Source of the DNA: an uncultured Candidatus Rokubacteria bacterium
GTDB lineage: Bacteria; Methylomirabilota; Methylomirabilia; Rokubacteriales; DASRDR01
NCBI GenBank assembly: GCA_963708025.1
Contig: CAVPSB010000013.1
Span: forward strand, 128,001 to 192,000
Direction: 5' to 3'
Length of the DNA: 64,000 nucleotides
The notes below the pieces were generated by a model. It searched no databases, was not told the origin of the DNA, and saw only the letters and a program-made list of their open reading frames with translations. Shown here in pieces: positions 38,355 through 62,596 of the stretch. The translations under genes and the position numbers were made by a program. Within the stretch, counting starts at the first letter, position 1; every line of letters begins with the position of its first letter.

Positions 38355-38392
38355 TGTAATACTACACTAGTACAGACAGCTCTCGCTGTCAA
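38355..38392 (-). promoter_or_regulatory. Sigma70 promoter with overlapping GntR operator (site 1)
   Basis: Minus strand: TTGACA-N17-TAGTGT; operator TGTACTAGTGTAGTATTACA (38355-38374) ends 2 nt before the ATG. Confidence 0.85.
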
Positions 38393-38584
38393 TGCTCCCC
38401 GGGCGGGTGCCAGGAGCAGTCGCCCGTTGACGTCGGGAGTGCCAGGCTTGATCCCCTCGTGCTCCTCGAAGAGTCGCGCCAGCATCTCGACCACCTCATC
38501 CGCGGAATCGAAGATCGCTACGAGCGGCCGGGCTGAAGGGGAATGTGGCACGCTTCACTATTCCTCTCCGGCGAGTGCGCATCT

Positions 38585-38604
38585 CGTATTACATTGGTGG
38601 TACA
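38585..38604. promoter_or_regulatory. GntR operator (site 2)
   Basis: CGTATTACATTGGTGGTACA, upstream of the divergent ORF at 38785. Confidence 0.7.
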
Positions 38605-38784
38605 GTGAGCCGGGGCAAAGCCAATCACGATGAGGAGTTCGGCCACGCCCTGGTACGAAGCAAAGCTGCGCGAGACGTGCAAGGGCTCGGAGTCTCCTCT
38701 GCGCGTGTCCGTCCGTCCACCTCGCTCACCGGTTCGAGAAAGAGCTCGCGCGGTTCGCCCCTCATTGTGCTCGTCGTCCGGCGA

Positions 38785-39045
38785 ATGGCCGGCAGGCTGG
38801 CGAAGGGAGAGCAGAGCTTGAGACCGAAGCGCACAAAGGCCGTACTTCCTGCAACTCCGCATCCGGTTGAATGCTCGACGAGTGATCGGGCTGTCCTGAT
38901 CGATGCCTACAAGGCCGGCCTGATCGTGGCATGGAAGCGCGATGCCGAGCGTGGATACCGCTTGACATTTGCCGATCGACCGGATGAGTACGTGGAGGTC
39001 ACGAAGCTCACTCGGTATCTCGAGAGGCTCAACGGCGCCTCCTGA
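38785..39045 (+). CDS. Hypothetical protein
   Basis: Globular-looking segment DRAVLIDAYKAGLIVAWKRDAERGYRLTFADRPDEYVEV; start uncertain. Confidence 0.6.
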   Translation: MAGRLAKGEQSLRPKRTKAVLPATPHPVECSTSDRAVLIDAYKAGLIVAWKRDAERGYRLTFADRPDEYVEVTKLTRYLERLNGAS

Positions 39046-39162
39046 CCGCTGAGAGCGAACAGCGGGGCCATGCCGCAGATGGTCGGCCGACCTTCGACGA
39101 TGGAAAGCCGCCGCCCTTCGGCGCCGGTAGCCCGTTCGTCTCCTCGTCCTTGCCCGGGGATC

Positions 39163-39357
39163 CTAGGGCCGCATCCTAGGCGGATACCGGGGCTGCTCTT
39201 CGACGGTCGCCGTTCGCGTGTCGGAAACCGGCCGCCACTCCTTCTCGTCTGGGGTCAGCCACCACACGCGCCCGGTGTCGTCCAAGGCGTAGAGGACCGG
39301 ACTGCCGTCCGCTTTCTGGGTTGCAGCGATCTGAATGAATTTCGAGACCTGCTCCAT
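39163..39357 (-). CDS. Small hypothetical protein
   Basis: RBS aggaagggag; FIQIAAT...LYALDDTGRVWW beta-hairpin-like segment. Confidence 0.65.
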   Translation of the reverse strand: MEQVSKFIQIAATQKADGSPVLYALDDTGRVWWLTPDEKEWRPVSDTRTATVEEQPRYPPRMRP

Positions 39358-39625
39358 TCGGTCTCCCTTCCTGGGTCCAGGTAACTTTCAGCCGTCGCCG
39401 CTCAACCCGCCACGGTCAACGACAGACTCAGCGTCGCCCCCTTTGCGGCTCACTCCAGAGCTCAGTGTCGCGCTAGGTCGTACCCACGTGGCCTTCGAAA
39501 CCGAGATGAAGACAGGATCAGCGGCCAGGGCGGGTGATCGGCGTCGAGCATCGTCTGGTCCCTGATTGCCATCGTGAGCCGGCACACATCAGGCGCCCGC
39601 ACTCATCCGGTTTCCCGTATCGTCT

Positions 39626-40081
39626 TCACCACTGATCTCTGTATGCACGCCCCTGCGCCGGGGAGGCCGGTTGCTCTTGTCTGCGCCTCCACCCATTCGG
39701 CTCTGCGCCCACGGAGCCGACCGGGGGGCCCTCCCGCCTCGAATGAGCGAAAGGCGTCCACCAGTTGCCGAACGAGACGAGCGACAGCGCGAGCATGTTG
39801 AGCGCGATGGGCAAGACTTTGGGGGTGATCGGTTCGTCCGAGAACCAGTACGCGAGCGTGCCACTCGACAGCACGAGGACGAGCACGGCGGTTTTCGGCG
39901 GCCATGCGCGCCGCCACACGCGACCGAGAGCTTCACCTAGGTCGCCCTCGAGCCGTCTGTGGAGAATCACCCATGACACGAATCCGGCCACAAGGAGTGC
40001 CGGAATCCATCGATGCCACCACAGAACCGCGGCGACAATCAGCAGCACTGCGGCACGCTGCCTGCGTTCTGCGCCGCTCAC
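39626..40081 (-). CDS. Hypothetical membrane protein
   Basis: Several hydrophobic segments; GTGA overlap with the upstream ORF. Confidence 0.5.
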   Translation of the reverse strand: MSGAERRQRAAVLLIVAAVLWWHRWIPALLVAGFVSWVILHRRLEGDLGEALGRVWRRAWPPKTAVLVLVLSSGTLAYWFSDEPITPKVLPIALNMLALSLVSFGNWWTPFAHSRREGPPVGSVGAEPNGWRRRQEQPASPAQGRAYRDQW

Positions 40082-40290
40082 CGGGCCCCGCCGTCTGTGA
40101 GGGCCGTGACCGGGGCGCCGACGATCAGGACCAGCTTGATCGCGGCGAGCACACGGATCGTCAGCCGCGATGGGTCCAACTCGAACTGTCGGACCCGGTA
40201 GATCCAGCTGGCGATACCGCCAGCTCGAGTCAGCGCTGGGCCGACCATCGCGACGATCCAGACCGGAGTCCACACGGCTCGCCCCTCCAT
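40078..40290 (-). CDS. Small hypothetical membrane protein
   Basis: Two hydrophobic segments; starts directly after the 40295-40648 ORF. Confidence 0.4.
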   Translation of the reverse strand: MEGRAVWTPVWIVAMVGPALTRAGGIASWIYRVRQFELDPSRLTIRVLAAIKLVLIVGAPVTALTDGGAR

Positions 40291-40294
40291 GACG

Positions 40295-40648
40295 TCAGCC
40301 TTCCCCACCCTCGTCCCGGTAGGGATCATGCTCCGGTGTGGGGAAGCGATGGTGACCGAGAGACTCCCCATCGATGTCGATGAACACGAGGGCTTGCTGC
40401 CATCCCGGCCTATTCACCCAGATCGCCGATGCCACGGTTCCCGTGCGCATATTGACTCCCTGCCACACGCCGCCCGCAGGCTGGCCATCACGCCGGCTCG
40501 TCGTCAGCTCACGCTTGCAGGCTTCAAAACCGTCGCTCACGAGTGCATTCAGGATCTCGATCGGCGCCGCAACCCATCCCCGCTCCCGCTCGCTCCACGT
40601 CATCTTCCCCTGCTCGCGCAACTCATTGAGGCTGTTAACCGTCTGCAT
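40295..40648 (-). CDS. Hypothetical protein
   Basis: RBS ggagaa; ordered sequence GGVWQGVN...ASAIWV...LVFIDIDG. Confidence 0.7.
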   Translation of the reverse strand: MQTVNSLNELREQGKMTWSERERGWVAAPIEILNALVSDGFEACKRELTTSRRDGQPAGGVWQGVNMRTGTVASAIWVNRPGWQQALVFIDIDGESLGHHRFPTPEHDPYRDEGGEG

Positions 40649-40849
40649 AGGTTCTCCCGGTCGCGGTCAGAAACCCGACACGATGCCGCGCCGGCCCATC
40701 CTGACGTCCCATCGGCCCGCTCAGCCGCGGGCCCGGACGGCCCCCGCGCTGCCTCCCCACCTCTACCCTCGAGGCCAATAGGCGCCCGGGCCGGGACGGC
40801 GCCTTTCGGCGAGAACGAATCGACCGCCGGGCGAATCGCTTCGACCGGA

Positions 40850-41611
40850 TCAGCAAGCTGGCGTCGCGACCTCCGACCCGCGAGGGAGCCCGATCGACGG
40901 GCCAACGACGACAATGAGCCGCGCGCTCACGAGGGCGCGAATCACGAGCCAGGACGGATCAAACTCGAGCCACTGCATACTGAATTTCGGGGCCCGCGGG
41001 TGAGCGTGATGATTGTTGTGCAGGGCCTCCCCTCCCGTCACCCACGCCAGAAGCCGCCAGTTGTACGCGCTGTTGGCGAACGTCTGCCCGCCGCGCCAGT
41101 GGCCGAGCCCGTTGATCAGGGGCGCGAACACCAGGACATACAGGATGGCGTGCCCGAGGCCGACGATCAATCCCGGCATCAAACCGAGGATCGAACAGAG
41201 CAGCCCGACACCGATCACCGGGCCCGCCCAGCCCCGAGAGAACAGCGCGCGATCCCACCGATCCGGCGGGAGGTCTGGGGCGAATCTCTGGAGCGTGTCC
41301 GGGTTCCGCGCTTCACGCGCGTAGTAGTATGCGTTCAGGAGCTGGACGCGCCACAAGCCGAGCAGGCGCGGGCTGTGCGGGTCGCCGGGCCGGTCCGTGA
41401 AGGTGTGGTGCTTGCGGTGCACGGCGACCCACTCCTGACGGCACTGGCCCGTGGTCAGCCAGAGCAGGGCCCGGAACAGCACGTCGGCCACCGGGTGCAC
41501 TACGAGCGCCCGATGCGCAAGCCCCCGATGCAGGTAGATCGAGGTGGCGATCACCGCAACCTGAGTGAGGACGATGGTGCCGAATGCAACCGTGAGGGCG
41601 TGAATGAACAC
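40850..41611 (-). CDS. Membrane fatty-acid (delta-9-type) desaturase
   Basis: His boxes HRGLAH, HRKHH, HNNHH; RBS aaggag. Confidence 0.93.
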   Translation of the reverse strand: MFIHALTVAFGTIVLTQVAVIATSIYLHRGLAHRALVVHPVADVLFRALLWLTTGQCRQEWVAVHRKHHTFTDRPGDPHSPRLLGLWRVQLLNAYYYAREARNPDTLQRFAPDLPPDRWDRALFSRGWAGPVIGVGLLCSILGLMPGLIVGLGHAILYVLVFAPLINGLGHWRGGQTFANSAYNWRLLAWVTGGEALHNNHHAHPRAPKFSMQWLEFDPSWLVIRALVSARLIVVVGPSIGLPRGSEVATPAC

Positions 41612-41679
41612 GGCGGCTCCTTTTCCGTCTTACGGCGTTACCGAGTATCGGTCCCCCGTCGCTCGCGGGATGGCAGGCC

Positions 41680-41910
41680 CTACGCCGTCCGGGCTTGACG
41701 CTCGCCGATCGGCGTTGACTGACATTCGGGACACCTCGTTGCCCAATGCAGGATGCAACCCGCGCTGTCGCCGGGGTGCGGCCACGCGCTGTCGCATTCG
41801 ACACAGTAATGGGAGTGCCGTGACCTGGGGCTGGCGCGGATCACGGCTGCGGAGTGCTTCCTCCGCCACCAATCGCGTCCGGGCGTCACCGTAAGGGGCC
41901 AGGTCGCCAT
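41680..41910 (-). CDS. Small Cys/His-rich putative zinc-binding protein
   Basis: HSHYCVECDSAWPH...C...CPEC; RBS gggaga. Confidence 0.65.
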   Translation of the reverse strand: MATWPLTVTPGRDWWRRKHSAAVIRASPRSRHSHYCVECDSAWPHPGDSAGCILHWATRCPECQSTPIGERQARTA

Positions 41911-42012
41911 AGCCTATCTCCCGCGGGGCATCACGCCCTCAAACCCTCCGGATGCCGAAGTTGATCTCCGGCGTCCGCACCCAGCCTCCGATCCGGCCGG
42001 TCTGGCTCCAGG

Positions 42013-42291
42013 TCACGCAGCCGCATCACGGTCGGCTCCGCCGTTCCACGCGTGCTTCATGGACGCGGGGTCAGGCGCCATCGGACGGAGCCGCAGCGGC
42101 CGGTACCCGCTCCGCCCGAGATCCTCGATGGCGCGCGCGACTGCATCCGGATTGGCGCTCTCGCCGGCCAACACCCGGACGCGCGGCAGCGCTTGGTGTC
42201 GCGGGACGCCGCCCTCGACCCGAGACTCGATCCCTTCCATCGGCTGGTGGCGGACCACGATCGACCGGTCATCGTCAATGTGCAGTCGCAT
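42013..42291 (-). pseudogene. Degenerate, HTH-only third paralog of the GntR regulator
   Basis: MRLHID...GGVPRHQALPRVRVLAGESANPDAVARAIEDLGRSGY aligns with MRLQVD...GGVPPDQALPSIRELAGFLGINPNTVARVVEDLKQSGY. Confidence 0.8.
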
Positions 42292-42301
42292 CAGGCTATA
42301 C

Positions 42302-42339
42302 CGTACTAGTACGGTAGTACACACTGCCGGGCCTGTCAA
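42302..42339 (-). promoter_or_regulatory. Sigma70 promoter with overlapping GntR operator (site 3)
   Basis: Minus strand: TTGACA-N17-TACCGT; operator TGTACTACCGTACTAGTACG (42302-42321). Confidence 0.85.
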
Positions 42340-42569
42340 GCTCCGATTCCGATGGTCGTGCCCGCGCCAGGTCGGGTCCAGTCAAGAGCGCTTTCTATGG
42401 ACGCGTGCGCGACCGCGGCTCGACCCGCGGACGAAGCAGGCCTCGACGCGCGGGGAACCCCAGTCCCATGGCCACGGCGAGCCGGCACGCCTTGCGTCCG
42501 CGTCCAGGCCTGCGCTACGCTGGCGCGGCCTCGCAGCCGCCGCCAGCTGGCGCGCAGGCAAGAACTCCC

Positions 42570-44533
42570 GTGAACGAGAACGCTCGCGTTCCGATCCCCT
42601 TCGGGCGATCGCTGCCACAGCCGGCGCTGGAGTCCCGCTCCACCATCGGGCGGTGGCTGCTCGGCGTGAGCGAGCTCCACGCCAGGAGAAGCCGTGAGAC
42701 GCACTCGTGGCGGCGCGTGATCTGGCTCACAGGCGTCAACTACTTCTCCACCCTGGGCTACCAGCCCGGCATCGCGCTCCTGGCCGCCGGTGCTCTCGCG
42801 CCGCTCGCAACGTCCGTCCTCGTCCTCGTCACGCTGCTCGGCGCCCTCCCGATCTATATCCAGGTCGCCCGCCGCTCCTACGCTGGCCAGGGGTCGATCG
42901 CGATGCTGGAGAACCTGCTCCCCGGTTGGACTGGCAAGCTCCTCGTGCTGATCCTGCTTGGGTTCGCGGCCACGGACTTCGTCATCACCATGACGCTGTC
43001 GGCCGCGGACGCCGCCAAGCACGCGATCGAGAATCCGTATCTCCATCGGTTCCTCAGCGACGCGCAGGTCGGGGGCACGCTGGTGCTCCTCGCCCTACTC
43101 GCCGTGATGTTCCTGCTCGGCTTCCGAGAAGCGATCGGGGTGGCCACGGTCGTCGCCATCCCGTACCTGCTGCTGAGCCTGGTCGTGCTCGTGCGCGGCC
43201 TCGTCGAGATCGCCGCCCGGCCGGAGCTGTGGAGCGGCTGGCAGCACGCCCTCGAGGCCCGGGGCGAGTGGGGCACGATCGCCGCCGGCGCGCTGCTAGT
43301 GTTCCCGAAGCTCGCCCTCGGGATGAGCGGCTTCGAGACCGGCGTCTCGGTGATGCCCCTCATCGACGGCGGCGCGTCCGATGCACAGCCGCGGCGCGGG
43401 GCCCAGCCTCCTGTCGGCCGGATTCACAACACGTGCAAGCTGCTCGTCGCGGCGGCAGCGATCATGAGCGTGATGCTTGTGCTCTCGAGTGTGGTCACGA
43501 CACTCCTGATCGCGCCGGCTGACTACCGGGAAGGGGGACCGGCGAGCGGGCGCGCGCTCGCCCACCTCGCCCACGGGTTCTTCAGCCCCGGGTTCGCCTC
43601 GCTCTATGACCTCTCGACCATCCTGGTCCTCTGGCTGGCCGGCGCCTCGGCGATGGCGGGGCTGCTGAACCTGGTCCCGCGCTACCTGCCGAGGTTCGGC
43701 ATGGCGCCGGCGTGGGCGGCGCGAGCGCGCCCGCTCGTCCTCGTGCTCTTCGTCATCAATGTGCTGGTCACGCTGATCTTCCGGGCCAGCGTGGAGGCGC
43801 AGAGCGGCGCCTACGCCACCGGCGTGCTCGTGCTGATCCTGTCAGCGGCGCTGGCGGTGACGCTGGCCCTTTGGCGCGAGCATCGACACCGGGCCAGCGT
43901 CTATTTCGGCGCCATGACCCTCGTCTTCGCCTACACACTCGTCGATAACTGCGTGGAGCGGCCGGACGGGGTGATCATCGGGAGCGCGTTCATCCTCCTC
44001 GTCCTCGTGGTGAGCACGGTGAGCCGATCCGTCCGCGCCACGGAGATCCGAGTGTCCGAGGCCTACTTCCTAGACCAGGCTTCGGCGGAGCTCGGCCCGG
44101 CGCTGGTGGGTAAGCGGGTGCACATGGTCCCCATGAAGGCGAGGTCGCCGAAGGCCCGGCCGCCAAAGGCGCCGAGATCCGCCGGTACTATCGGATCGAC
44201 GAGCCGCTGATCTTCGTGCACGTGAACCTCCTCGACAACCGCAGCGAGTTCCTGGCACCGCTGGAGGTCGAGGCGTCGCGGGACGGGCGGGATCACTCAT
44301 CGAGGTGACGGGGCGATCGCCATCGCCAACACGATCGCTTACCGCGCGAGATGGTGGACCCGATCAGCATCTTCCTCAGCCGGACCCGCCAGGACCTGAC
44401 GCGGCAGGCGTTTCGGTTCCTGCTCTTCGGGGAGGGGGAGACCGGGCTGCTCGTCTACGCCATCCTCCTCCGCTACTGGCAGTGGACGACCGAGGACGAC
44501 GTGCGACCGCGGATCCACCTCCTGTCGGACTGA
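42570..44533 (+). CDS. APC-superfamily transporter (frameshifts in the C-terminal domain)
   Basis: WLTGVNYFSTLGYQPGIA; FPKLALGMSGFETGVSVMP; AYATGVL; the C-terminus ends RPRIHLLSD*. Confidence 0.85.
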
Positions 44534-44678
44534 AGGGACGGCCGTCGTGCGACCCTCGGGCGACGGGCCGATGGACGCTCTCAGCGCGGCCGCCTCGCGC
44601 CAGTCGGCTCCGCATTCTCGATCCTCTGTTAGATTAGTCTCGTAGCATACCGGCACGAAAGGGACGGCCCGCACCGCT

Positions 44679-45386
44679 ATGCTCAGCCGACGGCAGTTTA
44701 CTCGCGTGGTCTCGGCCGGCCTCGCCGGTGCGGTGGCGCCCGCGCTGCCCGCGGCCGCCACGGCACCCACCACGGCGGCGAGACGGTCCGACGTGCGGTT
44801 CGCCGTCATGCGGGGCCGTTCGAAGATCGGCGTGCACACCGTCGAGTTCCGCGACCGGCCGGACGGGCTCGCGGTCCACACGGTCATCGACCTCGCCGTC
44901 AAGGTCGTCTTCATCACCGTCTTCCGGTATCAGCACGAGTGCGAGGACGTCTGGGTGTCCGGGCAGCTCCGTTCCCTACGGAGTCGCACGAGCGAGGACG
45001 GCAAACGGTACGCCGTCGAGGCGACGGCGGAGCCGGACGGAATTCGAGTCGTCGGTCCGGGCGGCCCGCTCGTCGTCGGCTCCCGGCTGCTGGCGTCGAA
45101 CAGCCTCTGGAATCCCCTGCTGGTCCACCAGCAGCGCCTCATCGACGCGCAGTATGGCGGGGAGATCGGCCTCGTCGTCCACCGGCGCGGCACGGAGTCG
45201 CTCGTGCTCGCCGGCACGGAGCGGGTCGTCACCGACCGCTTCCAGATCCTCACGCCGCACTTCGGCGGTCTGCTCTGGTACGATGCCACGGGCCGTTGGG
45301 TCAAGGGCTCCCTCGAGCTCCGTGGGGAGTGGATCGACATGTCTTCGATCTCTAGAGCGCTCGCGGCGCCCGCGCCACGCTCGTGA
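44679..45386 (+). CDS. Tat-exported beta-rich protein (DUF6134-like)
   Basis: SRRQF Tat motif; IGVHTVEF...[11 protein letters not shown]...LWYDATGRW. Confidence 0.65.
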
Positions 45387-45577
45387 CCACGGCGGCCGCG
45401 CCGGACGATATCGTGTACGAAATCGCGCGCGCGGTTCTCGAGCGCTTCGACGACTTCATGCGGCTGCACGCCGCCTTCGCACCGCTCGACCCGCGCGAGA
45501 TGGTCCGCGCCGGGAACCGGGCGCCGCTCCACCCCGGTGCGGAGCGCTACTATCGGGAGCGGGGCTCGCTGCCCTGA
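45383..45577 (+). pseudogene. C-terminal remnant of a TAXI-type TRAP solute receptor
   Basis: [11 protein letters not shown]...LHAAF...[15 protein letters not shown]. Confidence 0.75.
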
Positions 45578-45627
45578 ATGAGTCCCATCCGCGCCCGAGC
45601 CCTGACGGCTCGGAGGAGGTGACGGCC

Positions 45628-47381: not shown

Positions 47382-47439
47382 CCGTCGGGTCGCACGCGAC
47401 TAGGCTAGGCTGCGATCTCCTGACCGAGGAGCCTGATCC

Positions 47440-49300
<1,861 letters not shown>

Positions 49301-49409
49301 AGCGGACGCTCACGACGACAATCACCCGGGAGAGCGGGTCACCTGGCGGGCGAGCCTCCGGCTCACCGCGATCGCGAGGTCGGCCCGCTCGGGATCTGTC
49401 GCTCAGCGC

Positions 49410-49447
49410 TTGACCAGGTGGTCATGGTGTACTATCTTATTCATACA
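49410..49447 (+). promoter_or_regulatory. Sigma70 promoter with overlapping GntR operator (site 4)
   Basis: TTGACC-N17-TATCTT; operator TGTACTATCTTATTCATACA (49428-49447) ends 2 nt before the ATG. Confidence 0.85.
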
Positions 49448-49449
49448 GT

Positions 49450-50535
49450 ATGAAGATTCCGATGCGCCTGCAAGTCGATGCGCACAGCCCGATCCCGATC
49501 CGCCGGCAACTGACGGAACAACTCAAACACCTCATCGAGGGCGGCGGCGTCCCGCCGGACCAGGCGCTGCCCAGCATCCGGGAGCTCGCCGGCTTCCTCG
49601 GCATCAATCCGAATACGGTCGCGCGCGTCGTCGAGGATCTGAAGCAGAGCGGCTATGTGGAGGCGCGGCGAGGCAAGGGCGTGTTCGTCGCGCCGGCGCC
49701 TCCCGCCCGCCCGGCTCCGATCCTCCGCGAACGCTTTCTGCGGGACATGGTGATCCGGGCGGCGGCCCTCGGGATGACCGCTGACGACCTCGCGGTGGGC
49801 GTCCTGAGTCTGACCGGGGTTCGGCCCCCGGCCGTCCGGAGGGGGATCGAGATCCTGTTGGTGGAATGCAGTCCGCCGGAGCTCGACTTCTTTGCCCGGG
49901 AACTGGAGTCCCACATCCCGGTCCACGTGGATAAGGTACTCCTCGGTGACCTGGCGACCGCAGTGCGGCGCCAGAAGCAAGCCGGTCGCTGGGGGGCGGC
50001 GGTCACGAGCTTCTTCCATCTCCCGGAGGTGGAGCGCCGCCTGGGCGGCCTGGAGATCCCGGTGATCGCGCTCCTCGCCGAGGTCCATCTCGAGACCCTC
50101 CACCACCTGGCCCAGTTTCCATCCGGGACCCGGGTGGGCGTGGCCTCCGCTCACGTCGAGACCGCCCACAACCTGGAGCACTCGATCGCCAACGCCGGGC
50201 TGCCGAACATCGCACTGGTGGGGACGTCTCCCGCCGAGGGGGCCAGTTTGGAGCGCCTGGTGCGGCGAGTGGACGTCATGGTTTGCTCCACCGCCGCCGC
50301 GGATCGAGTCCGGCAGCTGGCTGGCTCGGCCGTGCAGGTGCTCATCGACGACCGGGCACTCGATCCGCGGGCCATCCAGATGCTCGCGGCCCTCATGGTG
50401 CAGCAAGACGGCGATAAGCCGGACAACCCTCCCGCGCCCCGTCCGAAGGCAGCTGGGCTGTCGGTCCGCTCCGGGCGCCCCGCCCGGGGCGCCACGCGGA
50501 AGACCGCGGGAGCACGTCATGCGGAGAAGCCGTAA
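49450..50535 (+). CDS. GntR-family regulator (YtrA-type HTH with PlmA-like C-terminal region), paralog 2
   Basis: Colinear and highly similar to 37273-38352 except for the tails. Confidence 0.92.
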   Translation: MKIPMRLQVDAHSPIPIRRQLTEQLKHLIEGGGVPPDQALPSIRELAGFLGINPNTVARVVEDLKQSGYVEARRGKGVFVAPAPPARPAPILRERFLRDMVIRAAALGMTADDLAVGVLSLTGVRPPAVRRGIEILLVECSPPELDFFARELESHIPVHVDKVLLGDLATAVRRQKQAGRWGAAVTSFFHLPEVERRLGGLEIPVIALLAEVHLETLHHLAQFPSGTRVGVASAHVETAHNLEHSIANAGLPNIALVGTSPAEGASLERLVRRVDVMVCSTAAADRVRQLAGSAVQVLIDDRALDPRAIQMLAALMVQQDGDKPDNPPAPRPKAAGLSVRSGRPARGATRKTAGARHAEKP

Positions 50536-50833
50536 GCCGGTGGGAAACGGTGGCAGCGGAAGGCGAACGAGCAGCGCATCCGAGAACGGACGGCCTGGGC
50601 GATAGCTCCTGACTCCGCGTCTCCCTGGATCGCGCCTCACGCGACGTCCGCGACCAAGTAGCCAGCGAGGGCTCCGGGATCGATGCTGGTCGGCCCTGAA
50701 GTCACGTGAGGCATTTCGAAGCTCCAGGGATGATTCGCCGAGGCCACCGATGAGTCCCCCACCGTTGGACAAACCCTCCGAAGGGTCCCCCCTCGCCGCT
50801 CGCCCATCCGCGCCCAGCGGACAGGCCGCCGAC

Positions 50834-53800
50834 ATGCCGGGACTGAGAGCCAGGGCACTGTTCCGAGACTTGGGGTCGCGCGCGTTCTCGTCGGGATCGC
50901 TGCCTGACTCGCCAGGACCCAATCAGGGCGGAGCTCTTCAGCGCCGAGACGTCTCGAACAGCATGCGGAAAGCGTCGCCGCGCAGCGTGTCCACGCCGAG
51001 GGTGGGAGCGGACGCCCCCTCTCGCCGCGCGTGCGAGACAGCGGGCGCGTGCTGCTCCGATGCTATCGCGAGCTCGCCGCCGTGATCCGAGAGGAAGGCG
51101 CGATCACCCCGGCCGCGGAGTGGTTCGTCGACAACTTCCACATCGTGGAGGACGTCCTTCGAGAGGTCCGGGAGGATCTTCCTCCGGGATTCTACCGCCG
51201 GCTGCCAAAGCTCGCGGAGGGACCCCTCGAGGGCTACCCGCGGGTGCTCGGCCTGGCCTGGCCCTTCGTCGCCCACAGCGACAGCCGCTTCGAGCCCGAG
51301 ACCCTCCAGCGCTTCGTCCAGCGATTCCAGCGCGTCCAGGCGCTGACCATCGGCGAGCTGTGGGCCGTCCCGATCGCCCTGCGTCTGGTGCTCCTGGAGA
51401 ACCTCCGGCGCCTGGCCGAGCAGATCGTCAACGGCCGCGCTGCGCGCCGGGACGGCGGACGCGCTCGCGAACGAATTGCTCGGGCTCGGAGGGGAGCCGG
51501 CGCGCCGTCTGGCCTTTCGGCGGCTCGAGGCCGCTGCCCTGCCGATGGCCTTCACCGTGCAGCTCGTCCAGCGCCTGCGGGAGCAGGATCCCGAGTCGAC
51601 ACCGGCGCTCGCATGGCTCAGCGAACAGCTGTCCGGCCTGGGCACGTCGCCCGACGAGCTCGTGCGTCAGGAGCATCAGCGCCAGGCGGCGATGAACGTG
51701 ACGGTCCGCAACGTGATTACCAGCATGCGGACGATGTCGACGTTCGACTGGGCGGAGTTCTTCGAAAGCGTCAGTCTGGTCGATGCCGCGCTGCGCGCCG
51801 GGAGCGACTTCGGCGCGATGGACTTCAAGACGCGCGACCGATACCGTCACGCGATCGAGGACCTCGCTCGAGGTTCCCGGCGGACGGACATCGACGTCGC
51901 CCAGGAGGCGATCGCTCGAGCGAACGCGCGCCGCGTCGGAGCGGGAGCCGGCGGGCACCTCCGGCGGATCCCGGGTCGAGGATCCTGGCTACTACCTGAT
52001 CTCGAAGGGGCGCCGCGGCTTCGAACGGGAGATCGGCTACCGGGTCCCCGTCACGCAGTGGCTGCTGCGAGCCTACGTGGGCGGAGCCACGCCGGGCTAC
52101 CTGGGCACCATCGGCGTCATCGCGGGGTTGCTCGTGGTGGTTCCCTCTCGTCGCCACGCATGCCGCGGGCGTGAGCCCGCGTTGTGCTCGTTCTTCTCGG
52201 ACTCGCCGCCTTGATTCCGGCATCCGATCTCGCCGTCGCGCTCATCAATCGCTTCGTCACGGAGCTGCTCGGCCCCCGAGCGCTGCCGCGCCTCGAGCTC
52301 GCCGAGGGCATCCCGCCGACCCTGCGAACCCTCGTGGTGATGCCGACCTTGCTGGTGAGCGACGCCGAGATCGAGGAGCAGGTCAATCGCCTGGAGCTCC
52401 ACTATCTGGCGAATCTGGAGGGCGCCATCCACTTCGCTCTCCTCTCTGACTGGATCGACGCGCCGACGGAAACCATGCCGGCTGATGATCGGCTCCTCGA
52501 GGCCGCGATCGAGAGGATCGCCCGGCTCAACCGGCGCCATGGTCCCGCTCCCGACGCGGGGGCCCGATTCCTCTTGCTCCACCGCCGCCGGGTCTGGAAT
52601 GCCAGCGAGGGCCAGTGGATGGGATGGGAGCGCAAGCGCGGCAAGCTGCAGGAGCTCAACCAGTTGCTCCTGGGGCACGACGGCACGACGTTCATGGGGT
52701 CCCGGCTGGACGTGCCGCCTACGGTCCGATACGTGATCACCCTCGACGCGGACACGCGCCTGCCTCGAGGCGCCGCCATCCGCCTCGTCGGGACGATGGC
52801 CCATCCGCTCAACCGGCCTGTCTTCGATGCGCGCGTGGGCCGGGTCGTCGAGGGCTACGCGGTCCTTCAGCCGCGTGTCACTCCCACGATGCCCACCGAT
52901 CGCGACACGTCACTCTTCCAGCGGCTCACCGCCGGGCCGGCGGGGATCGATCCCTATGCGGCGGCGACCTCCGATGTCTACCAGGATCTCTTTGGAGGCG
53001 GCTCATACACCGGCAAGGGCATCTATGACGTCGAGGCATTTGCCGGGGCGCTGGAGGGTCGCGTACCCGAGAATGCGCTCCTCAGCCACGATCTGTTCGA
53101 GGGGATCTTCGCGCGGACGGGACTGGTCACCGACATCGAGCTCTTCGAGGAGTTCCCGACGGACTACGAGGTCGCTGCCGCCCGGCAGCATCGATGGGCG
53201 CGCGGCGACTGGCAACTGCTGCCCTGGATCGTCCGGGGGGCCGCCGGGGCCGGGACGCATCGAAGCTCCATCCCGCCGATCGATCAGTGGAAGATGGTGG
53301 ACAATCTCCGGCGCACTCTGTCGGCTCCGGCCGCGTGGCTGACGCTCGCCGCCGGCTGGACGCTTCCCCACCGCCTGCCGCTCGTGTGGACGACGTTCGT
53401 CCTCGCCACGATCGCAGTACCCGCCCTCCTGCCCGCGTTCGCCGAGGCGATCCCGAGGCGAGCGGGAATCTCCAAGCGGACCCACGTCCGCGCGGTCGGG
53501 CGGAGCTTCGCGCTGGCGGCCTCCCAGATTGCGCTGTGGATCACGTTCATGGCGCATCAGGCGTGGCTGATGGGCGACGCGATCGGGCGGACCCTGATCC
53601 GCGTGTATGGGACCCATCGACGGTTGCTCGAATGGATGACGGCCGCGCAGGCCAAGGCGGGACTGTCCCTCACGCTGGCCGGCGCCTATCGACGGATGCG
53701 TGGGGCGCTGATCCTGGCCGTCGTGGCCGGGATGTCGGTCGTCGCTCGTTCGGCCAGGCAGCTGGCCGATCGCCGTGCCGTTCCTCTTGCTGTGGGCCCT

Positions 53801-56800
53801 CTCGCCGCTCATCGCGCGATGGGTCAGCCGGCCCCCGCGCGTCGATCCGACGCAGGGGCTGTCGGCGTCGGATGCGAGGCTCCTCCGCTCGACCGCACGC
53901 CGCACGTGGCGGTTCTTCGAGGCGTTCGTCGGTCCCGGCGATACGTTCCTGCCGCCTGACAACTTCCAGGAGGACCCGGCGCCGGTCCTCGCCCACCGCA
54001 CGTCGCCGACCAACATCGGGCTGTACCTCGGGGCGATCGTCGCCGCCCGCGATCTCGGCTGGCTCGGGATGCTGGAGACCGTCGACCGGCTCGAGGCGAC
54101 GCTCGCGACGATGGGCCGGCTCGAGCGCTTTCGGGGCCACTTCTACAACTGGTATGAGACGACCGACCTTCGCCCGCTGGAGCCCCGCTACGTGTCCACG
54201 GTGGATAGCGGGAATCTGGCGAGCCAGCTCCTCGTTCTCGGGAATGCCTGTCGCGGGGCGCTCGAGCGCCCGCTACTCGATCGCGAAGCCTTCGCCGGAA
54301 TCGAGGACGCGGTATTGCTCGTGCGCGAGGCGGCGAGTGCCCTCGTGGATGACCGGCGCACGCAAACGGTCACGGCTCGGCCATCTGGACCAAGCCTGCG
54401 AGGCTCTGGTCATGACGCTTCGCGACCCACCCCGAACGGCGGCCGACTGGGTCGTCCGCTTGGGTCAGCTCGCCGGCCAGGCCGATGCCCTGGTGGACAT
54501 CGCACGCACGTTGACGGCGGAGCGCGGCGATGGCGAGGACTCGGACGTCCTCGTCTGGGCGCAGGCGACGCGCGCCACCATCGCGAGCCACCGGCGCGAC
54601 CTCGACCGGCTGATGCCGTGGGCATCCCACCTCGAGGCCGTCGTCGCCGATCTCTCCCCGCGTCCCGCGAGGCCGCGATCGCGAGCCGGGCCCTCTGTTC
54701 CTCGTTTCCCACCCTGGCCGCCCTGGCCGACCTCTGCGAGAGTGCGGTCAGCGAGCTCACGGCCATGCTCGACGGCCGCCCGCGCGCCGGGTCCGTCGCG
54801 TGGGGGTCGAGTCGAGCACGTCCACGAGCTCATCGGACAGCTGGAGGGCGCCGCCGTGGCGTCACGAGCGCTCGTCGAGCGCCTCTCCGCCATCGCCCGC
54901 GTCACGAAGCAGCTCTTCGATGCGATGGACTTTGGCTTCCTCTTCCACTCTGCGCGCAAGATCTTCTCGATCGGCTATCGCGTCACGGAGGGGAGTCTCG
55001 ATCCGAGCGCGTACGATCTCCTCGCCTCCGAAGCGCGGCTCGCGAGCTTCATCGCGATTGCCAACGGCGCGGCGCCCACGTCGCACTGGTTCCACCTGGG
55101 TCGCCCGATGACGCCCGTCGGGCTCGGGGCGGCGCTGGTGTCCTGGTCCGGCTCGATGTTCGAGTACCTGATGCCCGCGCTCGTCATGCAGGCGCCGCCG
55201 GGAAGCTTGCTCCAGCGGACGTATCGCCTCGTCGTCCAGCGTCAGATTGGGTACGGGGCGGAGCACGGGATTCCCTGGGGCATCTCCGAATCGGCGTACA
55301 ACGTGCGCGATCTCGACCTGACCTACCAGTATTCGAACTTCGGGGTTCCGGGTCTGGGTCTCGAGCGGGGCCTCAGCGAGGACTTGGTCGTCGCGCCCTA
55401 CGCGACCGCCCTGGCCGCCATGATCGACCCGGGTGCCGCCGCTCGCAACTTCACGCGCCTCATCGCGGTGGGCGGGAGGGGATTCTACGGCTTCTACGAG
55501 GCGCTGGACTACACGCCGTCCCGGCTCCCGGCGGGGACGACCGTGGCGATCGTTCGCGCCTACATGGCGCACCATCAGGGCATGACCCTCATCGCGCTGG
55601 CGAACGTGCTCCGAGATGGGGTGATGCGCGCGCGATTCCACGGCGAGCCCATCATCCAGGCGACCGAGCTTCTCTTGCAGGAGCGCGTGCCCCGGGACGT
55701 GGCGGTGGCGAGACCGCGGGCGGAAGAGGTGCAGGCGCCGGCCCATGTGCGGGAGTTCGTGGAGCCGTCCTTCCGGCAGTTCACGTCTCCGCACGACCCG
55801 ACGCCGCGGACGCACCTGCTCTCCAACGGCCGGTACACGGTGATGCTGACGACCGCGGGGTCGGGCTACAGCCGGTGCGCGGAGCTCGCCGTCACCCGAT
55901 GGCGGGAGGACGTCACCCGGGATCACTGGGGGACCTATCTCTTCCTGCGGGATGTCCAGAGCGGGGCGGTCTGGTCGGCGGGGTATCAGCCCACCGGCGT
56001 CGAGCCGGACGACTATCGCGTGACCTTCGCGGAGGACCGGGCCGAGTTGTATCGGCGCGATGGCGCCATCACGACCACGCTCGAGGTGCTGGTCTCGCCG
56101 GAGGACGACGCCGAGCTGCGGCGGGTGTCCGTCACGAACCTGGGGGGGCAGACGCGAGAGATCGAGCTGACCTCCTACGCCGAGCTCGTGCTGGCTCCGC
56201 CGGCGGCGGATACCGCGCACCAGGCCTTTTCCAGCCTCTTCGTCCAGACGGAATGGGTAGCCGATCTCGGGGCCCTGCTGGCGACCCGCCGTGGCCGGTC
56301 GGCGACGGAGCCGGCGATCTGGGCGGCCCACATCGTCGTCGTCGAAGGCCAGTCCGGTGGAGGGACTCAGTACGAGACCGACCGCGGGCGGTTCCTCGGC
56401 CGGGGTCGCGGGGTCCGCACCCCGATGTCGGTCATCGACGGGAGGCCCCTCTCGAACACGACCGGCTCGGTGCTCGATCCAATCTTCAGCCTCAGACGGC
56501 GAGTCCGTCTCGCGCCGGGAGAGAGCGCACGCCTGATCTTCTCCACGCTCGTCGGCCCGTCGCGCGAAGCCGCCGTGGCGCTCGCCGACAAGTATCGCGA
56601 CCCCGCGACGTTCGAGCGGACGGTCACGCTGGCCTGGACGCGGGCGCAGGTCCAGCTCAACCATCTCGGGGTTCGCGCGGACGAGGCCCGCCTGTTCCAG
56701 GATCTTGCGGGCCGGATTCTCTACGCGGACGCGACGCTTCGGCCCGCAGCGGATGGTGCTGCGGCAGAATGCGTCCGGGCCTGCGGCCCTGTGGGCCCAC

Positions 56801-59656
56801 GGGATCTCCGGCGACCTCCCGATCGTCCTGGTCCGCATCGACGAGCCGGAGGATCGAGGCATCGTCCGACAGCTCCTCCGCGCGCACGAGTACTGGCGCC
56901 TGAAGGGGCTGGCGGTCGATCTCGTCATTCTGAACGAGCGGGCGCACTCCTACACGGAGGAGCTCCAGGCGTCGCTGGAGACGCTGGTCCGGACGAGCCA
57001 GTCGGCGTCGCGGCACGAGGGGCACGAGACACACGGGAAGGTCTTCATCCTGCGGAAGGACCTGCTCAAGGCGCACGGAGCGCGATGCCCTGCAGACGGC
57101 CGCTCGAGCCATCCTCCTGAGTCGGCACGGCACGCTCGCGGAGCAGCTCGCGCGCGCCACGATCCGCTCCGAGCACGGCGGCCCCGCCCCGCCGCCGCCC
57201 GGCCCGAGCCCCAGTCCCCCGCCGACGCGCCGCCGGCCCGCCCGGAGTTCGAGTTCTTCAACGGGCTGGGGGGGTTCGTCGACGATGGGCGGGAGTACGT
57301 CACCGTCCTCGGGGAAGGGCAATGGACGCCCGCGCCCTGGATCAACGTCGTCGCGAATCCCGCGCTTCGGCTTCCAGGTCTCCGAGTGCGGGGCCGGCTA
57401 CACGTGGTCGCGCAACAGCCGGGAGAATCAGCTGACGGCGTGGTCCAACGATCCCGTCAGCGACCCGCCCGGGGAGACCATCTATGTCCGGGACGAAGAG
57501 ACCGGTGACCTGTGGGGCCCGACGCCGCTGCCCATCCGGGAGGACGCGTCGCCCTACGTCGCCCGGCATGGTCAGGGCTACAGCCGCTTCGAGCACACGT
57601 CCCATGGCATCTTCCTGAGTCTGCTCCAGTTCGTGCCGGTGAACGACCCGGTGAAGATCTCTCGGCTGAGGATCGAGAACCGATCCGGCAAGTCCCGGCG
57701 TCTGTCCGTGACCGCGTACGTCGAATGGGTCCTGGGAGTCTCGCGAAGCGCGACCGCGCCCGTCATCGTCACCGAGATCGATCCGGACACGGGTGCGCTG
57801 TTCGCGCGCAACCCGTGGAACATCGACTTCGGCGATCACGTGGCGTTCGCCGATCTCGGGGGTCGTCAGACCGCGTGGACCGGCGATCGGACGGAGGTCC
57901 TGGGTCGGAACGGAACACTCGATCATCCGGCGCTGCTGGAGCGAGGGGGCCGCCCGTCCGGCCGGGTCGGCGCCGGACTCGACCCCTGCGCGGCCCTGCA
58001 GACCGTGATCGAGGTGGCGCCCGGCGGGCGCGAGGAGATCGTGTTCTTCCTCGGTGAGGCCGCGACGGCCGCCGAGGCGCGCGGGCTGCTCACTCGCTAC
58101 CGGACAGCGGACCTCGATCTGACGTTGCAGGCCGTGAAGACTCGGTGGGACGACATCGTCGGCGCCATCCAGGTCAAGACGCCGGACCGCTCCGTGGACA
58201 TCATGCTCAACCGCTGGCTTCTCTACCAGACGCTCGCCTGCCGTGTCTGGGCCCGATCCGCCTTCTATCAGGCCGGGGGCGCGTACGGGTTTCGCGACCA
58301 GCTCCAGGACGTGATGGCCCTGACCGTCGCGAACCGGGAGGTCGCGCGGGAGCATCTCCTCCGGGCCGCCAGCCGCCAGTTCGTGGAGGGCGACGTGCAG
58401 CACTGGTGGCATCCCCCCTCCGGCCGGGGGGTGCGCACCCGGATCTCCGACGACGCGATCTGGTTGCCCTACGCCGTCACGCAGTACCTCGAGGCGACGG
58501 GCGATGCCGGCGTGCTCGACGAGGTCATCCCCTTCCTCGAAGGGCCCGTCCTCGCGACGGGGCAGCACGAGTCGTACTTCGAGCCCACGGTGTCCGCCGA
58601 GCACGGCACCGTGTTCGAGCACTGCGCCCGCGCGCTCGACCGGAGTCTCGCCATCGGCGCGCACGGCCTGCCCCTGATCGGTACGGGGGACTGGAACGAC
58701 GGCCTGAACCGCGTCGGCCCCGAGGGGCATGGAGAGAGCGTGTGGCTCGGCTGGTTCCTGCACACGACCCTCTGGGAGTTCGCGCGGTGGGCCGATGCCC
58801 GCGGCGAGCGCGGGCGCGCCGACAGGTGGCGCGGCCACGTCGACATCCTGAAGACCTCGCTCGAGGAGCAGGCGTGGGACGGGGACTGGTATCGTCGCGC
58901 CTTCTTCGACGACGGGACCCCCCTCGGGTCCGTCGTCAACGCGGAGTGCCGCATCGATTCCATCGCGCAGTCGTGGGGGGTGCTCTCGGGCGCCGCCGAG
59001 CCCGAAGCGCGCGGCGCGCGCGATGGCGGCCGTCGAGGAGTATCTCGTGCGGCGAGGTCAGGAGCTGGTCCTCCTGTTCACGCCCCCGTTCGACCGCGCG
59101 CCTGTCGACCCCGGCTACATCAAGGGCTACCCGCCGGGCGTGCGCGAGAACGGCGGCCAGTATACCCATGCCGCGATCTGGTCGGTGATGGCGTTCGCGG
59201 CGCTCGGTGACGGCGACAAGGCCAACGAGCTCTTCTCGATCCTGAACCCGATCAACCGCGCGAGCACGCGGGCGGGAGTCCACCGGTACAAGGTGGAGCC
59301 CTACGTGGCGGCCGCCGACGTCTATGCCGAGTCCCCGCACGTCGGCCGCGGAGGATGGACGTGGTATACGGGCTCCGCGGGCTGGATGTACCGCGCGGGG
59401 ATCGAGTGGCTCCTCGGGTTCCGGCTGCGTGGCGCGGTGCTTCACCTCGACCCCTGCATCCCGCGCGCGTGGCGACGCTTCGAGATCGCGTTCCGCTACC
59501 ACGGGTCGCGCTACGAGATCACGGTCGAGAACCCCCGCGGGGTGACGCGGGGCATCGCCCGATCGAGGTCGATGGACCCTCCTCGCGTCCGGCAGCGCGA
59601 GCCTCCCGTTGACCGCGGATGGCGCGACGCATCGCGTGCGCGTCGTCCTCGGATGA
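50834..59656 (+). CDS. ndvB: Cyclic beta-1,2-glucan synthase (GT84 + GH94 domains); many frameshifts
   Basis: PIRAELFS; GWERKRGKL; YVITLDADT; LLSHDLFEG; SWSGSMFEYLMP; AYGFRDQLQD; GDWNDG; GVRENGGQYTH; WTWYTGSAGW. Confidence 0.93.
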
Positions 59657-59754
59657 GAGCTCCGACCAGGGCAGTCACCAGGCTGATCACCAGGCCGCCA
59701 CGAAGACTCCGATGATCAGCGGCGATTACGAGGGCGTCCCTTCGGACGCCTCCG

Positions 59755-60045
59755 TCACACTCGTCCGCTTGCTGGTGCTGGGCGAATCGTCTCCTGCCCC
59801 GCTCGCAGAGCCTCGCTGACGTGCTCCGTCGCGTCCTGCACGGCTTCCTCAGCGCGCCGTAAGGTGTCCCCACCGCGATCGACCAGCTTGCCGAGCCTCT
59901 CCCCTACTCCCTGAACGCCTTCCGCGGCTTTCGTGCGCACCGCGCGCGATCCCTCCCCCAGATAGTCCTCGATCTCCTTCCCCCAGAACCATACGGCGAC
60001 TGCACCGGTGATCGCTCCCAAGACGAACACTTCACTCGTTCGCAT
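59755..60045 (-). CDS. YtxH-like small membrane-anchored helical protein
   Basis: FVLGAITGAVAVWFWG followed by an amphipathic helix; RBS aaggagga. Confidence 0.7.
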   Translation of the reverse strand: MRTSEVFVLGAITGAVAVWFWGKEIEDYLGEGSRAVRTKAAEGVQGVGERLGKLVDRGGDTLRRAEEAVQDATEHVSEALRAGQETIRPAPASGRV

Positions 60046-60097
60046 CGCGGGTCCTCCTTAGTTGCAAGACTTGAACTTCCCTACGCGGATCCATGTC

Positions 60098-60259
60098 TCA
60101 GCGCCGCTCTCTGCGACGTCGCCGTCGTGCGGCCGTGCGACCCGGAAATCGCGCCGTCCCCGGATGCCTGCTTCCTTTCCCGAAGCCGGGATGGCATTCG
60201 GGTCGGCAAAACGGCCCCTCGCCCGTAAACTCCTTCTTGCAGGTGTCACACTGCGCCAT
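60098..60259 (-). CDS. Small Cys-rich putative zinc-binding protein with basic tail
   Basis: MAQCDTCKKEFTGEGPFCRPECH; RBS ggagga. Confidence 0.55.
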   Translation of the reverse strand: MAQCDTCKKEFTGEGPFCRPECHPGFGKGSRHPGTARFPGRTAARRRRRRERR

Positions 60260-60423
60260 TGTTGAATCCTCCACGAGACTGGTTCGCGACGACCATCGCT
60301 GGGCTGGGCCGGGCTCACCAGACGCCCGCGCCCTCGCTGACGTGCTCGAGTTGCTCCGCCAGGGTCCAGCGGACCGGGACCGGGTTGGGCGTCTCGCCTT
60401 GCGGGTGCATCGACCGCTCGTAC

Positions 60424-60443
60424 TGTACCATAGTTCTAGTACA
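60424..60443. promoter_or_regulatory. GntR operator (site 5)
   Basis: TGTACCATAGTTCTAGTACA, upstream of the minus-strand small genes. Confidence 0.8.
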
Positions 60444-60527
60444 CTCCGTACAACCCATCGAGCCCCCAAGCCGAGGGGCCGCGAGCGTCGCCCGCTCGCC
60501 GTGGGGCCCGGGGCTCACGTTGCTCGA

Positions 60528-60556
60528 TTGCCACTGTACTACTTTAGTGGTACACT
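60528..60556 (+). promoter_or_regulatory. groESL sigma70 promoter with overlapping GntR operator (site 6)
   Basis: TTGCCA-N17-TACACT; operator TGTACTACTTTAGTGGTACA (60535-60554) fills the spacer and part of the -10. Confidence 0.8.
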
Positions 60557-60618: not shown

Positions 60619-60927
60619 ATGACTCAGGCAACGAAGACGAAGCTCCGCCCGCTCCACGACCGTGTCCTCGTCAAGCGTGTTGACGAAGAGGAAGTCCGCC
60701 GCGGCGGCATCATCATCCCGGACAGCGCGAAGGAGAAGCCCCAGGAGGGCAAGGTGATGGCCGTCGGCACCGGCAAGGTGACCGAGGACGGCAAGAAGAT
60801 CCCGCTCGACGTCAAGGCGGGCGATCGGATCCTGTTCGGGAAGTACTCCGGCAGCGAGGTCAAGATCGACGACCAGGAGTACCTCATCATGAAGGAGGAG
60901 GACGTCCTCGGCATCCTCGGAGCATGA
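60619..60927 (+). CDS. groES: Co-chaperonin GroES
   Basis: [31 protein letters not shown] aaggagg. Confidence 0.98.

Positions 60928-60982: not shown

Positions 60983-62596
<1,614 letters not shown>

Follow-up and report, generated by a model that had tools for sequence, protein, structure and literature searches.

The window analysed here, a 64-kb stretch of DNA from an uncultured Candidatus Rokubacteria bacterium (genome G000; G000:C13:128001-192000), carries six copies of a long palindrome which are very likely the operators of the adjacent GntR paralogs, predicted to repress their own operon together with groESL and stress operons. Comparison with related genomes indicates that this is a real, conserved and small GntR-type regulon in Rokubacteriales, whose predicted core is formed by autoregulation, a dedicated groESL and small stress and membrane proteins. 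The initial annotation of the window had proposed a palindromic operator linked to GntR paralogs, and this is supported in so far as the motif is specific, rare and conserved and goes together with a GntR gene that is predicted to regulate itself. The assembly is a metagenome bin of 8,166,589 bp in 49 contigs with 71% G+C, 99.67% complete and 8.18% contaminated.

The pattern YGTAYYA-N6-TRRTACR, with at most one mismatch allowed, has exactly six matches in the window, starting at 38355, 38585, 42302, 49428, 60424 and 60535, and thus recovers all six palindromes of the initial annotation, including the single mismatch in each of sites 1 and 4 and the lack of any site in the first 35 kb. In 100 dinucleotide shuffles, the expectation is 0.02 matches per window and six matches are reached in none. 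The whole 8.17-Mb genome holds ten matches, six of them inside one 22-kb stretch. A weight matrix built from the sites, applied to the whole genome as the initial annotation had recommended, scores these ten sites at 25-40 bits and sets them clearly apart from the other matches, which comprise one overlapping, shifted match at 24 bits and a next best match at 14.2 bits; the maximum in the reversed genome is 18.5 bits. The set of palindromes is therefore real and far beyond chance.

Pooling 70 sites yields a 26-bp palindrome, TAsTGTAYTAnTA/TAnTARTACAsTA, in which TGTA/TACA is invariant in all 140 half-sites, at positions that were also used for site selection. The flanks outside the 20-bp search matrix are retained as well (T in 96 and A in 116 of the 140 half-sites), and because these positions are absent from the matrix they provide evidence independent of it. 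In many operators the half-site recurs in the central 6 bp (TGTACTA GTAC GGTAGTACA, for example at window 42302-42321 and at L028:3005), with the consequence that the matrix also scores the site shifted by 8 bp; a third half-site or overlapping binding registers may exist. A further sequence, TGTACTACCCCCCTGGTACA, matches the strict pattern with a C-rich spacer and is identical at G011:C12:772575, G013:C21:359115 and G018:C6:375407. No gntR, groES or GlsB-like gene lies near the one locus of this sequence that was inspected (L016), and it may be a different conserved element.

The palindromes occupy two kinds of promoter. In the gntR type, TTGAC(A/C/T/G) is followed after 12-13 nt by the operator and then by the ATG, which lies 1-4 nt past the operator in 14 of 16 full-length gntR genes of G000 and its relatives, so that the motif is indeed present upstream of homologous regulators. 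Where the operator begins 12 nt past TTGACA or TTGACC and the ATG follows 2 nt on, the -10 element must lie inside the operator, and the gntR mRNA of the window is probably leaderless. The initial annotation had assigned one geometry to sites 1, 3 and 4, each with a GntR gene immediately downstream; TTGAC(A/C), the 12-nt distance, the operator and a GntR-like ATG 2-10 nt on are found at all three, but the frame at site 3 is a 92-codon stub. In the groES type, a consensus scan gives TTGCCA-17-TACACT, where the operator fills the spacer and supplies the first four bases of the -10 element, and TACAnT ends all 22 of the 22 groES-side operators examined. The operator centre is thus located at about -10 in the gntR type and about -20 in the groES type, between or over the hexamers, which is the position expected of a repressor; it is from this position that we infer repression.

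It is the chaperonin genes that argue most strongly for a function of the system. HrcA is present in G000 (C38:9631-10290), and of the four groES-groEL operons two have the controlling inverted repeat of chaperone expression (CIRCE), a perfect copy at C2:35590 and one with a single mismatch at C4:20813, two have the GntR operator and none has both. In five relatives, 12 groES loci divide into six with CIRCE only, five with the operator only and one with neither, the last on a 1.7-kb fragment at a contig end. The two elements coincide at none of the seven operator-bearing groES loci of G000 and these relatives, and the operator-linked chaperonin set is, as judged from its recurrence in these genomes, a conserved second regulatory class beside HrcA. 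A scan for the HspR-associated inverted repeat (HAIR) gave only matches with two mismatches, none of them near the chaperone genes examined. G000 also has an orphan groEL of 61% identity (C2:321897), and given the contamination of the bin some of its chaperonin copies could come from a second strain.

A motif census covered 41 genomes, G000 and 40 relatives, which belong to two families within a single order. It finds the strict motif in 21 of them, including the unpublished G038, and the reversed control pattern in none. Among the 33 relatives present in both surveys, the motif is found in 18 of 21 with a close ortholog of the regulator and in none of 12 without, a tally which counts partial orthologs at contig ends and in which one of the 18 genomes (G001) is included on the strength of a single doubtful site whose spacer is GC-rich. 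From 15 relatives, 37 loci around motif matches were fetched, yielding 60 sites of at least 25 bits: 29 precede groES by no more than 300 bp, 14 directly adjoin a full-length gntR gene at its start, 13 adjoin a gntR stub only and 13 fall into none of these classes, which overlap at divergent gntR/groES pairs; for four sites a GlsB-like gene is present within 400 bp as well. In the other family the order is groEL<groES<operator(s)>gntR>GlsB-like>u187 (G021, G026, G028 and G037), and G038 likewise shows the gntR part of this layout with groES outside the view. Such an arrangement, with groES, operator, gntR, the GlsB-like gene and u187, looks like the ancestral core. Further genes behind operators in relatives encode Hsp20 (PF00011, E 3e-22), GlsB-like proteins, the membrane protein u130, c6, c13 and, in one genome (G035), FtsH, and a desaturase gene of G006 begins 9 nt past an operator. 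The recurring links between motif and genes, together with Hsp20 and FtsH, fit the regulon for proteostasis and envelope stress that the initial annotation had put forward. This idea stands to the extent that operators lie over the promoters of groESL, GntR-GlsB-like, desaturase and zinc-ribbon/YtxH-like operons, and it loses the cyclic glucan synthase.

Close homologs of the regulator carry Candidatus Rokubacteria or Rokuibacteriota source names, and of 201 genomes sampled across the phylum, 99 have a member of the family at E<=1e-30 (including G119, which is unpublished). None of the distant members, at 35-40% identity, adjoins groES within 3 kb at the eight loci examined, which places the link to chaperonins with the close orthologs and not with the whole family. 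Similarly built palindromes stand at the starts of several distant members themselves (TGTCCTA-N6-TAGGACA, TGTCTTA-N6-TAAGACA and TGTACTA-N6-TAGTACA), some of them preceded by TTGACA at a distance of 12 nt, and this is consistent with a regulator and an operator that have changed together. The changed half-sites TGTCCTA and TGTCTTA, at loci L067, L070 and L066 (G073, G075 and G025), form a natural specificity series.

The two full-length regulators of the window, GntR1 (P0001) and GntR3 (P0002), are 77% identical over 318 aligned residues. Both match the GntR winged helix-turn-helix (wHTH) family PF00392 at residues 19-80 with 48.8 and 49.0 bits, respectively, above the gathering score of 27, and this match and the GT...AC palindrome of the predicted operator place them in the GntR superfamily. 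Residues 5-113 also align to the NCBIfam profiles of Rv1152 and PmtR, far under the cut-offs (54 vs 170 bits). The full-length model, with a predicted local distance difference test (pLDDT) of 70, consists of the wHTH, helices at 90-106 and 111-122, an alpha/beta domain (residues 132-322) and finally a basic tail that is disordered. The N-terminal core superposes on YtrA-type structures (6sbs, Z 13.3; 3neu, Z 12.7). Modelled alone, the C-terminal domain reaches a pLDDT of 85 and is two-lobed with about 195 residues; over its whole length it matches the N-terminal domain of PrpR (2pju, Z 9.7, 174 residues, root-mean-square deviation 6.1), that of an NtrC-family protein (2q5c, Z 8.9) and type I binding proteins, whereas each lobe taken singly gives equal Z scores with CheY-like domains. 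Only a two-lobed sensor-type fold, and nothing finer, is taken from these models. When 14 sequences are aligned, eight of them from members at 35-40% identity, the residues without any variation in this domain include E139-C140, T186, F188, H190, C279-S280, R269, R288 and D305; one cysteine per lobe and a histidine invite the hypothesis of a ligand or a thiol switch. A racemase-like domain was considered and dropped, as glutamate and hydantoin racemases, which also have one cysteine per lobe, appear at Foldseek ranks 37-50 with a sequence E of 0.71. The label PF27163 (YmtS_Ross), a precomputed annotation on many close homologs, and atlas neighbours that bear it, with scores of 0.89, serve as leads only, and among the literature matches listed for YmtS all were unrelated.

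Operators are also found in front of truncated copies of gntR. The same breakpoint, where the GntR sequence ...EDLKRSGY passes into RPL..., is present in 14 stub copies from 10 genomes, and a common breakpoint implies that these copies descend from one old truncation. The genes that follow differ and include a GlsB-like gene with c6, a u130-like gene and, in the window, the desaturase operon, and several copies are frame-broken upstream of the junction. At the junction there is a 42-nt block with a mean column identity of 0.95 and 25 invariant columns, compared with 0.86 in the operator of the stub cassettes, 0.66 between operator and block and 0.57 past the block. The homologous stretch of 16 full-length gntR genes is unremarkable (0.88 vs 0.86 and 0.81). 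The junction forms the hairpin AGCGG-N7-CCGCU with an invariant stem and a variable loop; RNAalifold on 13 copies of the block returned only this invariant 5-bp hairpin and no compensatory changes, and no Rfam match was obtained at E<=1. The 42-nt block is therefore no more than a candidate RNA element.

It is proposed that a dimer of the regulator binds the 20-26-bp palindrome, which is located within the core promoter or overlaps it, and thereby obstructs RNA polymerase. In this way it would repress its own, probably leaderless operon, consisting of gntR followed by genes for small GlsB-like membrane proteins, and also one of the two groESL classes and a few small stress or membrane-protein operons. 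In the window, these further targets would be the desaturase operon and the zinc-ribbon/YtxH-like operon, to which the relatives would add Hsp20 and FtsH. The remaining groESL class would stay under HrcA and CIRCE, and the cell would thus have two chaperonin sets, each with a switch of its own. The repressor would be released through the two-lobed C-terminal domain, which resembles periplasmic binding proteins and the N-terminal domain of PrpR and has two invariant cysteines and one invariant histidine, and the regulon may have grown as the autoregulated promoter, along with the gntR 5' end, was copied to positions ahead of new genes. A broader scenario is put forward tentatively and may well prove wrong: a second, HrcA-independent circuit for proteostasis and envelope stress in Rokubacteria, run by a repressor from a GntR subfamily for which no function has been described, with a YtrA-like core and a small two-lobed sensor, perhaps for a metabolite or for thiol/redox state through the invariant Cys-His-Cys set, which would have spread by copying of a leaderless promoter with about 70 gntR codons, and in which one stub lineage would have become a leader whose constrained 42-nt hairpin block is a new cis-regulatory RNA or DNA element.

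Other explanations of the same sites have to be considered. Activated promoters commonly have poor -35 boxes, and several groES-type promoters are of this kind. It is also the case that activating members of the GntR family exist, since HpaR1 is described as a positive regulator which in addition autorepresses (PMC4730234). The adjacent GntR protein could thus bind the sites as an activator or dual regulator, for example by remodelling the promoter, but this is improbable, as the operator centres lie at the position of a repressor and the gntR promoters have a near-consensus TTGACA that needs no activator. There is a similarly small chance that the palindrome is read by another, unlinked factor and that the neighbouring GntR gene is just one of its targets. 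Binding by GntR is what we infer, the genome encodes many other regulators, and 13 of the 60 sites in relatives have neither gntR, stub nor groES nearby; the strict motif is nevertheless confined to genomes with a close ortholog of the regulator, its GT..AC half-sites and length of 24-26 bp fit operators of the GntR/YtrA type (PMC6746942), and the variant palindromes of the distant members, with TTGACA 12 nt upstream, are as expected if regulator and operator change together.

Least probable is the view that the repeats are the footprint of a duplicative cassette, the gntR promoter, and that the genes other than gntR are not co-regulated. It draws on the 27 of 60 sites in relatives and six of ten in G000 that adjoin gntR or a stub, and on the single stub type with its common breakpoint. 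However, no gntR-derived flank is found at the operators of groES, Hsp20, the G006 desaturase, the operator-2 gene or its G004 homolog, the operator is better conserved in the stub cassettes than the sequence after it, which argues that it is kept by selection, and the partition of groES loci between CIRCE and operator is conserved across two families. Several observations also weigh against the proposed GntR repressor regulon as a whole. The host is uncultured and all compared genomes are metagenome bins; the contamination of the G000 bin means that paralog counts are perhaps somewhat inflated. The loci from relatives were picked for carrying the motif and the genomes are kin, so that the counts measure recurrence and overstate independent support, and since about half of the sites adjoin gntR or its stubs, part of this recurrence reflects one promoter duplicated and not independent recruitment. 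No clear promoter element is seen at operator 5, nor a clear -35 box at operator 2. The GroEL proteins of the two classes are 90-93% identical and a functional divergence of the chaperonins is not evident. The fold scores of the C-terminal domain are middling (Z 9-10), and a profile search with it against solved structures gave no significant relative (best E 0.18). In a search of sequencing runs, RNA runs kept as contigs held at most 0.15 of the words, and one run of unspecified type 0.33; contigs reveal neither the starts nor the levels of transcripts.

Outside the window, G000 has a third full-length gntR paralog on contig C10, and all three full-length paralogs stand behind operator-bearing promoters. 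Further gntR stubs are located at C10:215233, C25:260635 and C35:64724. The operator-controlled operon predicted on C10 consists of a stub, a GlsB-like gene, u130, the third gntR and another GlsB-like gene, and on C25 the stub is followed by a u130-like gene. Contig C34 carries the second operator-bearing groESL operon as well as an operator at a divergent gene pair that includes a response regulator. At this operator (C34:213528) an ATG 2 nt on opens a 71-codon frame without GntR likeness (L003 5529-6532), followed by a gene for a 164-aa protein and then a response-regulator receiver gene (Response_reg, E 1.6e-13), and a two-component element may be under the same operator.

The features of the window are collected in Table 1. 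The initial annotation had counted three GntR paralogs; there are in fact two full-length genes and two 5' stubs. Its GlsB and YtxH-like labels lack Pfam support above threshold: the GlsB proteins match Transgly_assoc only below the cut-off (E 2e-4 and 4e-4) and the YtxH-like protein matches no Pfam family above it. Operator 2 probably descends from an ancestral groES-side operator, and the G004 homolog of the gene behind it likewise stands behind an operator. The operon of operator 3 is arranged as stub leader, small Cys-rich reading frame, fatty-acid desaturase and c8. A tblastx comparison of 38400-40700 with the relatives and the genome itself was mostly noise in this GC-rich DNA, and use was made of only three of its matches, those of window 38788-39045 to G004, of window 39734-40081 to G005 and of the c8 gene.

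Table 1. Predicted operators and associated genes in the 64-kb window (window coordinates)
Feature	Position	Strand	Remarks
187-aa protein, gene 3 of GntR1 operon	36302..36865	-	clusters with GlsB-like proteins; order kept in other family
GlsB/YeaQ/YmgE-like small membrane protein, 86 aa; gene 2 of GntR1 operon	37016..37276	-	Transgly_assoc E 2.2e-4, below cut-off; order recurs in relatives
GntR1 (P0001, 359 aa), full-length regulator	37273..38352	-	GntR wHTH at residues 19-80, two-lobed C-terminal domain
Operator 1	38355..38374		TTGACA 12 nt upstream on minus strand; GntR1 ATG 2 nt past operator; 35.7 bits
Operator 2	38585..38604		weakest site, 25.1 bits
Small protein gene directly past operator 2	38605..39045	+	C-terminal 55 residues conserved in G004
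117-aa conserved protein, cluster c8	40295..40648	-	final gene of GntR-GlsB-u130 operon in G010
Fatty-acid desaturase	40850..41611	-	FA_desaturase E 3.4e-13; downstream of operator 3, same strand
Short-form gntR stub, 92 codons	42013..42291	-	degenerate; leader of desaturase operon; ends in junction ...EDLGRSGY|RPL..., common to 14 copies in 10 genomes
42-nt nearly invariant block within stub leader	42095..42136	-	contains hairpin AGCGG-N7-CCGCU
Operator 3	42302..42321		TTGACA 12 nt upstream on minus strand
Operator 4	49428..49447		TTGACC 12 nt upstream; GntR3 ATG 2 nt past operator
GntR3 (P0002, 361 aa), full-length regulator	49450..50535	+	
96-aa protein, one membrane helix and coiled-coil part (YtxH/LEA-like)	59755..60045	-	no Pfam family above threshold
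54-aa Cys-rich (zinc-ribbon-like) protein	60098..60262	-	also in operator-linked operons of G005 and G010
gntR stub, 31 codons	60315..60410	-	behind operator 5
Operator 5	60424..60443		faces minus-strand small-protein operon
Operator 6	60535..60554		fills spacer of groES promoter TTGCCA-17-TACACT
groES	60619..60927	+	Cpn10 E 1.4e-37
groEL	60983..62596	+	Cpn60_TCP1 E 1.1e-83; same operon as groES behind operator 6

Three further reading frames lie between or beside these features. A 601-codon frame at 42405-44210 (+), with a G+C content at third codon positions of 0.89, is separated from operator 3 by 83 bp, with the stub on the other side of the operator, and has no Pfam or NCBIfam family. FtsH (AAA and Peptidase_M41; 47609-49300, +) ends about 130 bp before operator 4 and is without an operator of its own; in G035 the order is operators, c13, FtsH, operator and gntR, with FtsH between operator pairs, and by gene order the FtsH neighbourhood is conserved between the window and G035. 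A gene resembling cyclic beta-1,2-glucan synthase (51031-59715, +), with GH94 supersandwich and catalytic domains, had been counted as a member of the regulon, but it has no operator upstream and its position is mere synteny; the 3' end of the glucan synthase gene abuts operator loci in G006, G009 and G010. The gene is split over several frames: the alignment of intact homologs from G006 and G010 passes successively through window frames 2, 3, 1 and 2, changing frame near 57.1-57.4, 59.0 and 59.57 kb, and the C-terminal part extends over three frames, so that the window copy is either a pseudogene or bears assembly errors or indels.

Among known regulators, the YtrA proteins of B. subtilis, C. 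glutamicum (Cgl2947, PDB 2EK5) and S. acidocaldarius (PDB 6SBS) are the closest for comparison. YtrA proteins are defined by a C-terminal effector or oligomerisation part of about 50 residues with two helices, and the Sulfolobus protein is described as autorepressed through a palindrome over the transcription start and as having a very small regulon (PMC6746942). Like these proteins, the Rokubacteria regulators have a wHTH followed by two helices, a small regulon and predicted autorepression through a promoter palindrome, which is likewise long (24-26 bp, with about 24 bp as the yardstick) and has distant half-sites; the order of gntR, the gene for a GlsB-like small membrane protein and u130/u187 in G000 and relatives would be a membrane-protein variant. 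Unlike them, they carry a two-lobed alpha/beta domain of 195 residues after the helices in place of the short C-terminus, their operons are without an ATP-binding cassette (ABC) transporter and their predicted targets include groESL and Hsp20. The likeness to the YtrA subfamily to which the initial annotation had pointed is seen in the N-terminal core and the long palindrome, but the extra domain means that this is not a plain YtrA protein.

The AraR subfamily combines a GntR helix-turn-helix with a binding-protein domain of the LacI/GalR type. The Rokubacteria proteins similarly join a GntR helix-turn-helix to a two-lobed fold like that of periplasmic binding proteins, which should close on a ligand, and in Foldseek the C-terminal domain matches type I binding proteins best, LuxP and ribose-binding proteins among them, with template-modelling (TM) scores of at most 0.52. 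No Pfam Peripla_BP or LacI match was obtained for the GntR proteins at E<=0.01 and the fold likeness is generic; in addition, the domain has 195 residues compared with about 270 in AraR, and the predicted targets are stress genes whereas those of AraR are sugar genes. HrcA and CIRCE offer a functional analogy, with a palindrome over the groES promoter, a repressor and an autoregulated regulator gene. They differ in that the GntR proteins have no match to PF01628 and the operator is another one, and the two systems exist side by side, each with its own share of the groESL copies. Duplicated chaperonins under regulators of their own are reported for the orphan response regulator MXAN_4468 of M. 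xanthus and for WhiB1, which acts on groEL2 of M. tuberculosis (PMC9040617, PMC3430963). As in these cases, one groEL copy of a duplicated set would have a dedicated repressor beside the canonical system, but the regulator families and the phylum are different, and the Rokubacteria GntR protein is predicted also to control small membrane and stress proteins and itself. No description of a GntR-chaperonin system in Rokubacteria was found in the literature searched, which had subscription journals outside its coverage.

The control of chaperonin genes by sigma-32, HrcA/CIRCE, HspR and CtsR is among the best-charted areas of bacterial regulation. If the proposed regulon is real in this form, one more dedicated repressor, acting on some of the groESL copies and leaving the others to HrcA, would be a new type of switch in a widespread, uncultured soil phylum. 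Both the protein and its 26-bp site are completely specified by their sequences, and the claim can therefore be tested without cultivation. The stub-leader cassettes would represent a clear natural case of a regulon that grows by copying of an autoregulated promoter, and the system as a whole would provide a handle on the purpose of the extra chaperonin copies, for example during drying, rewetting or membrane stress in soil.

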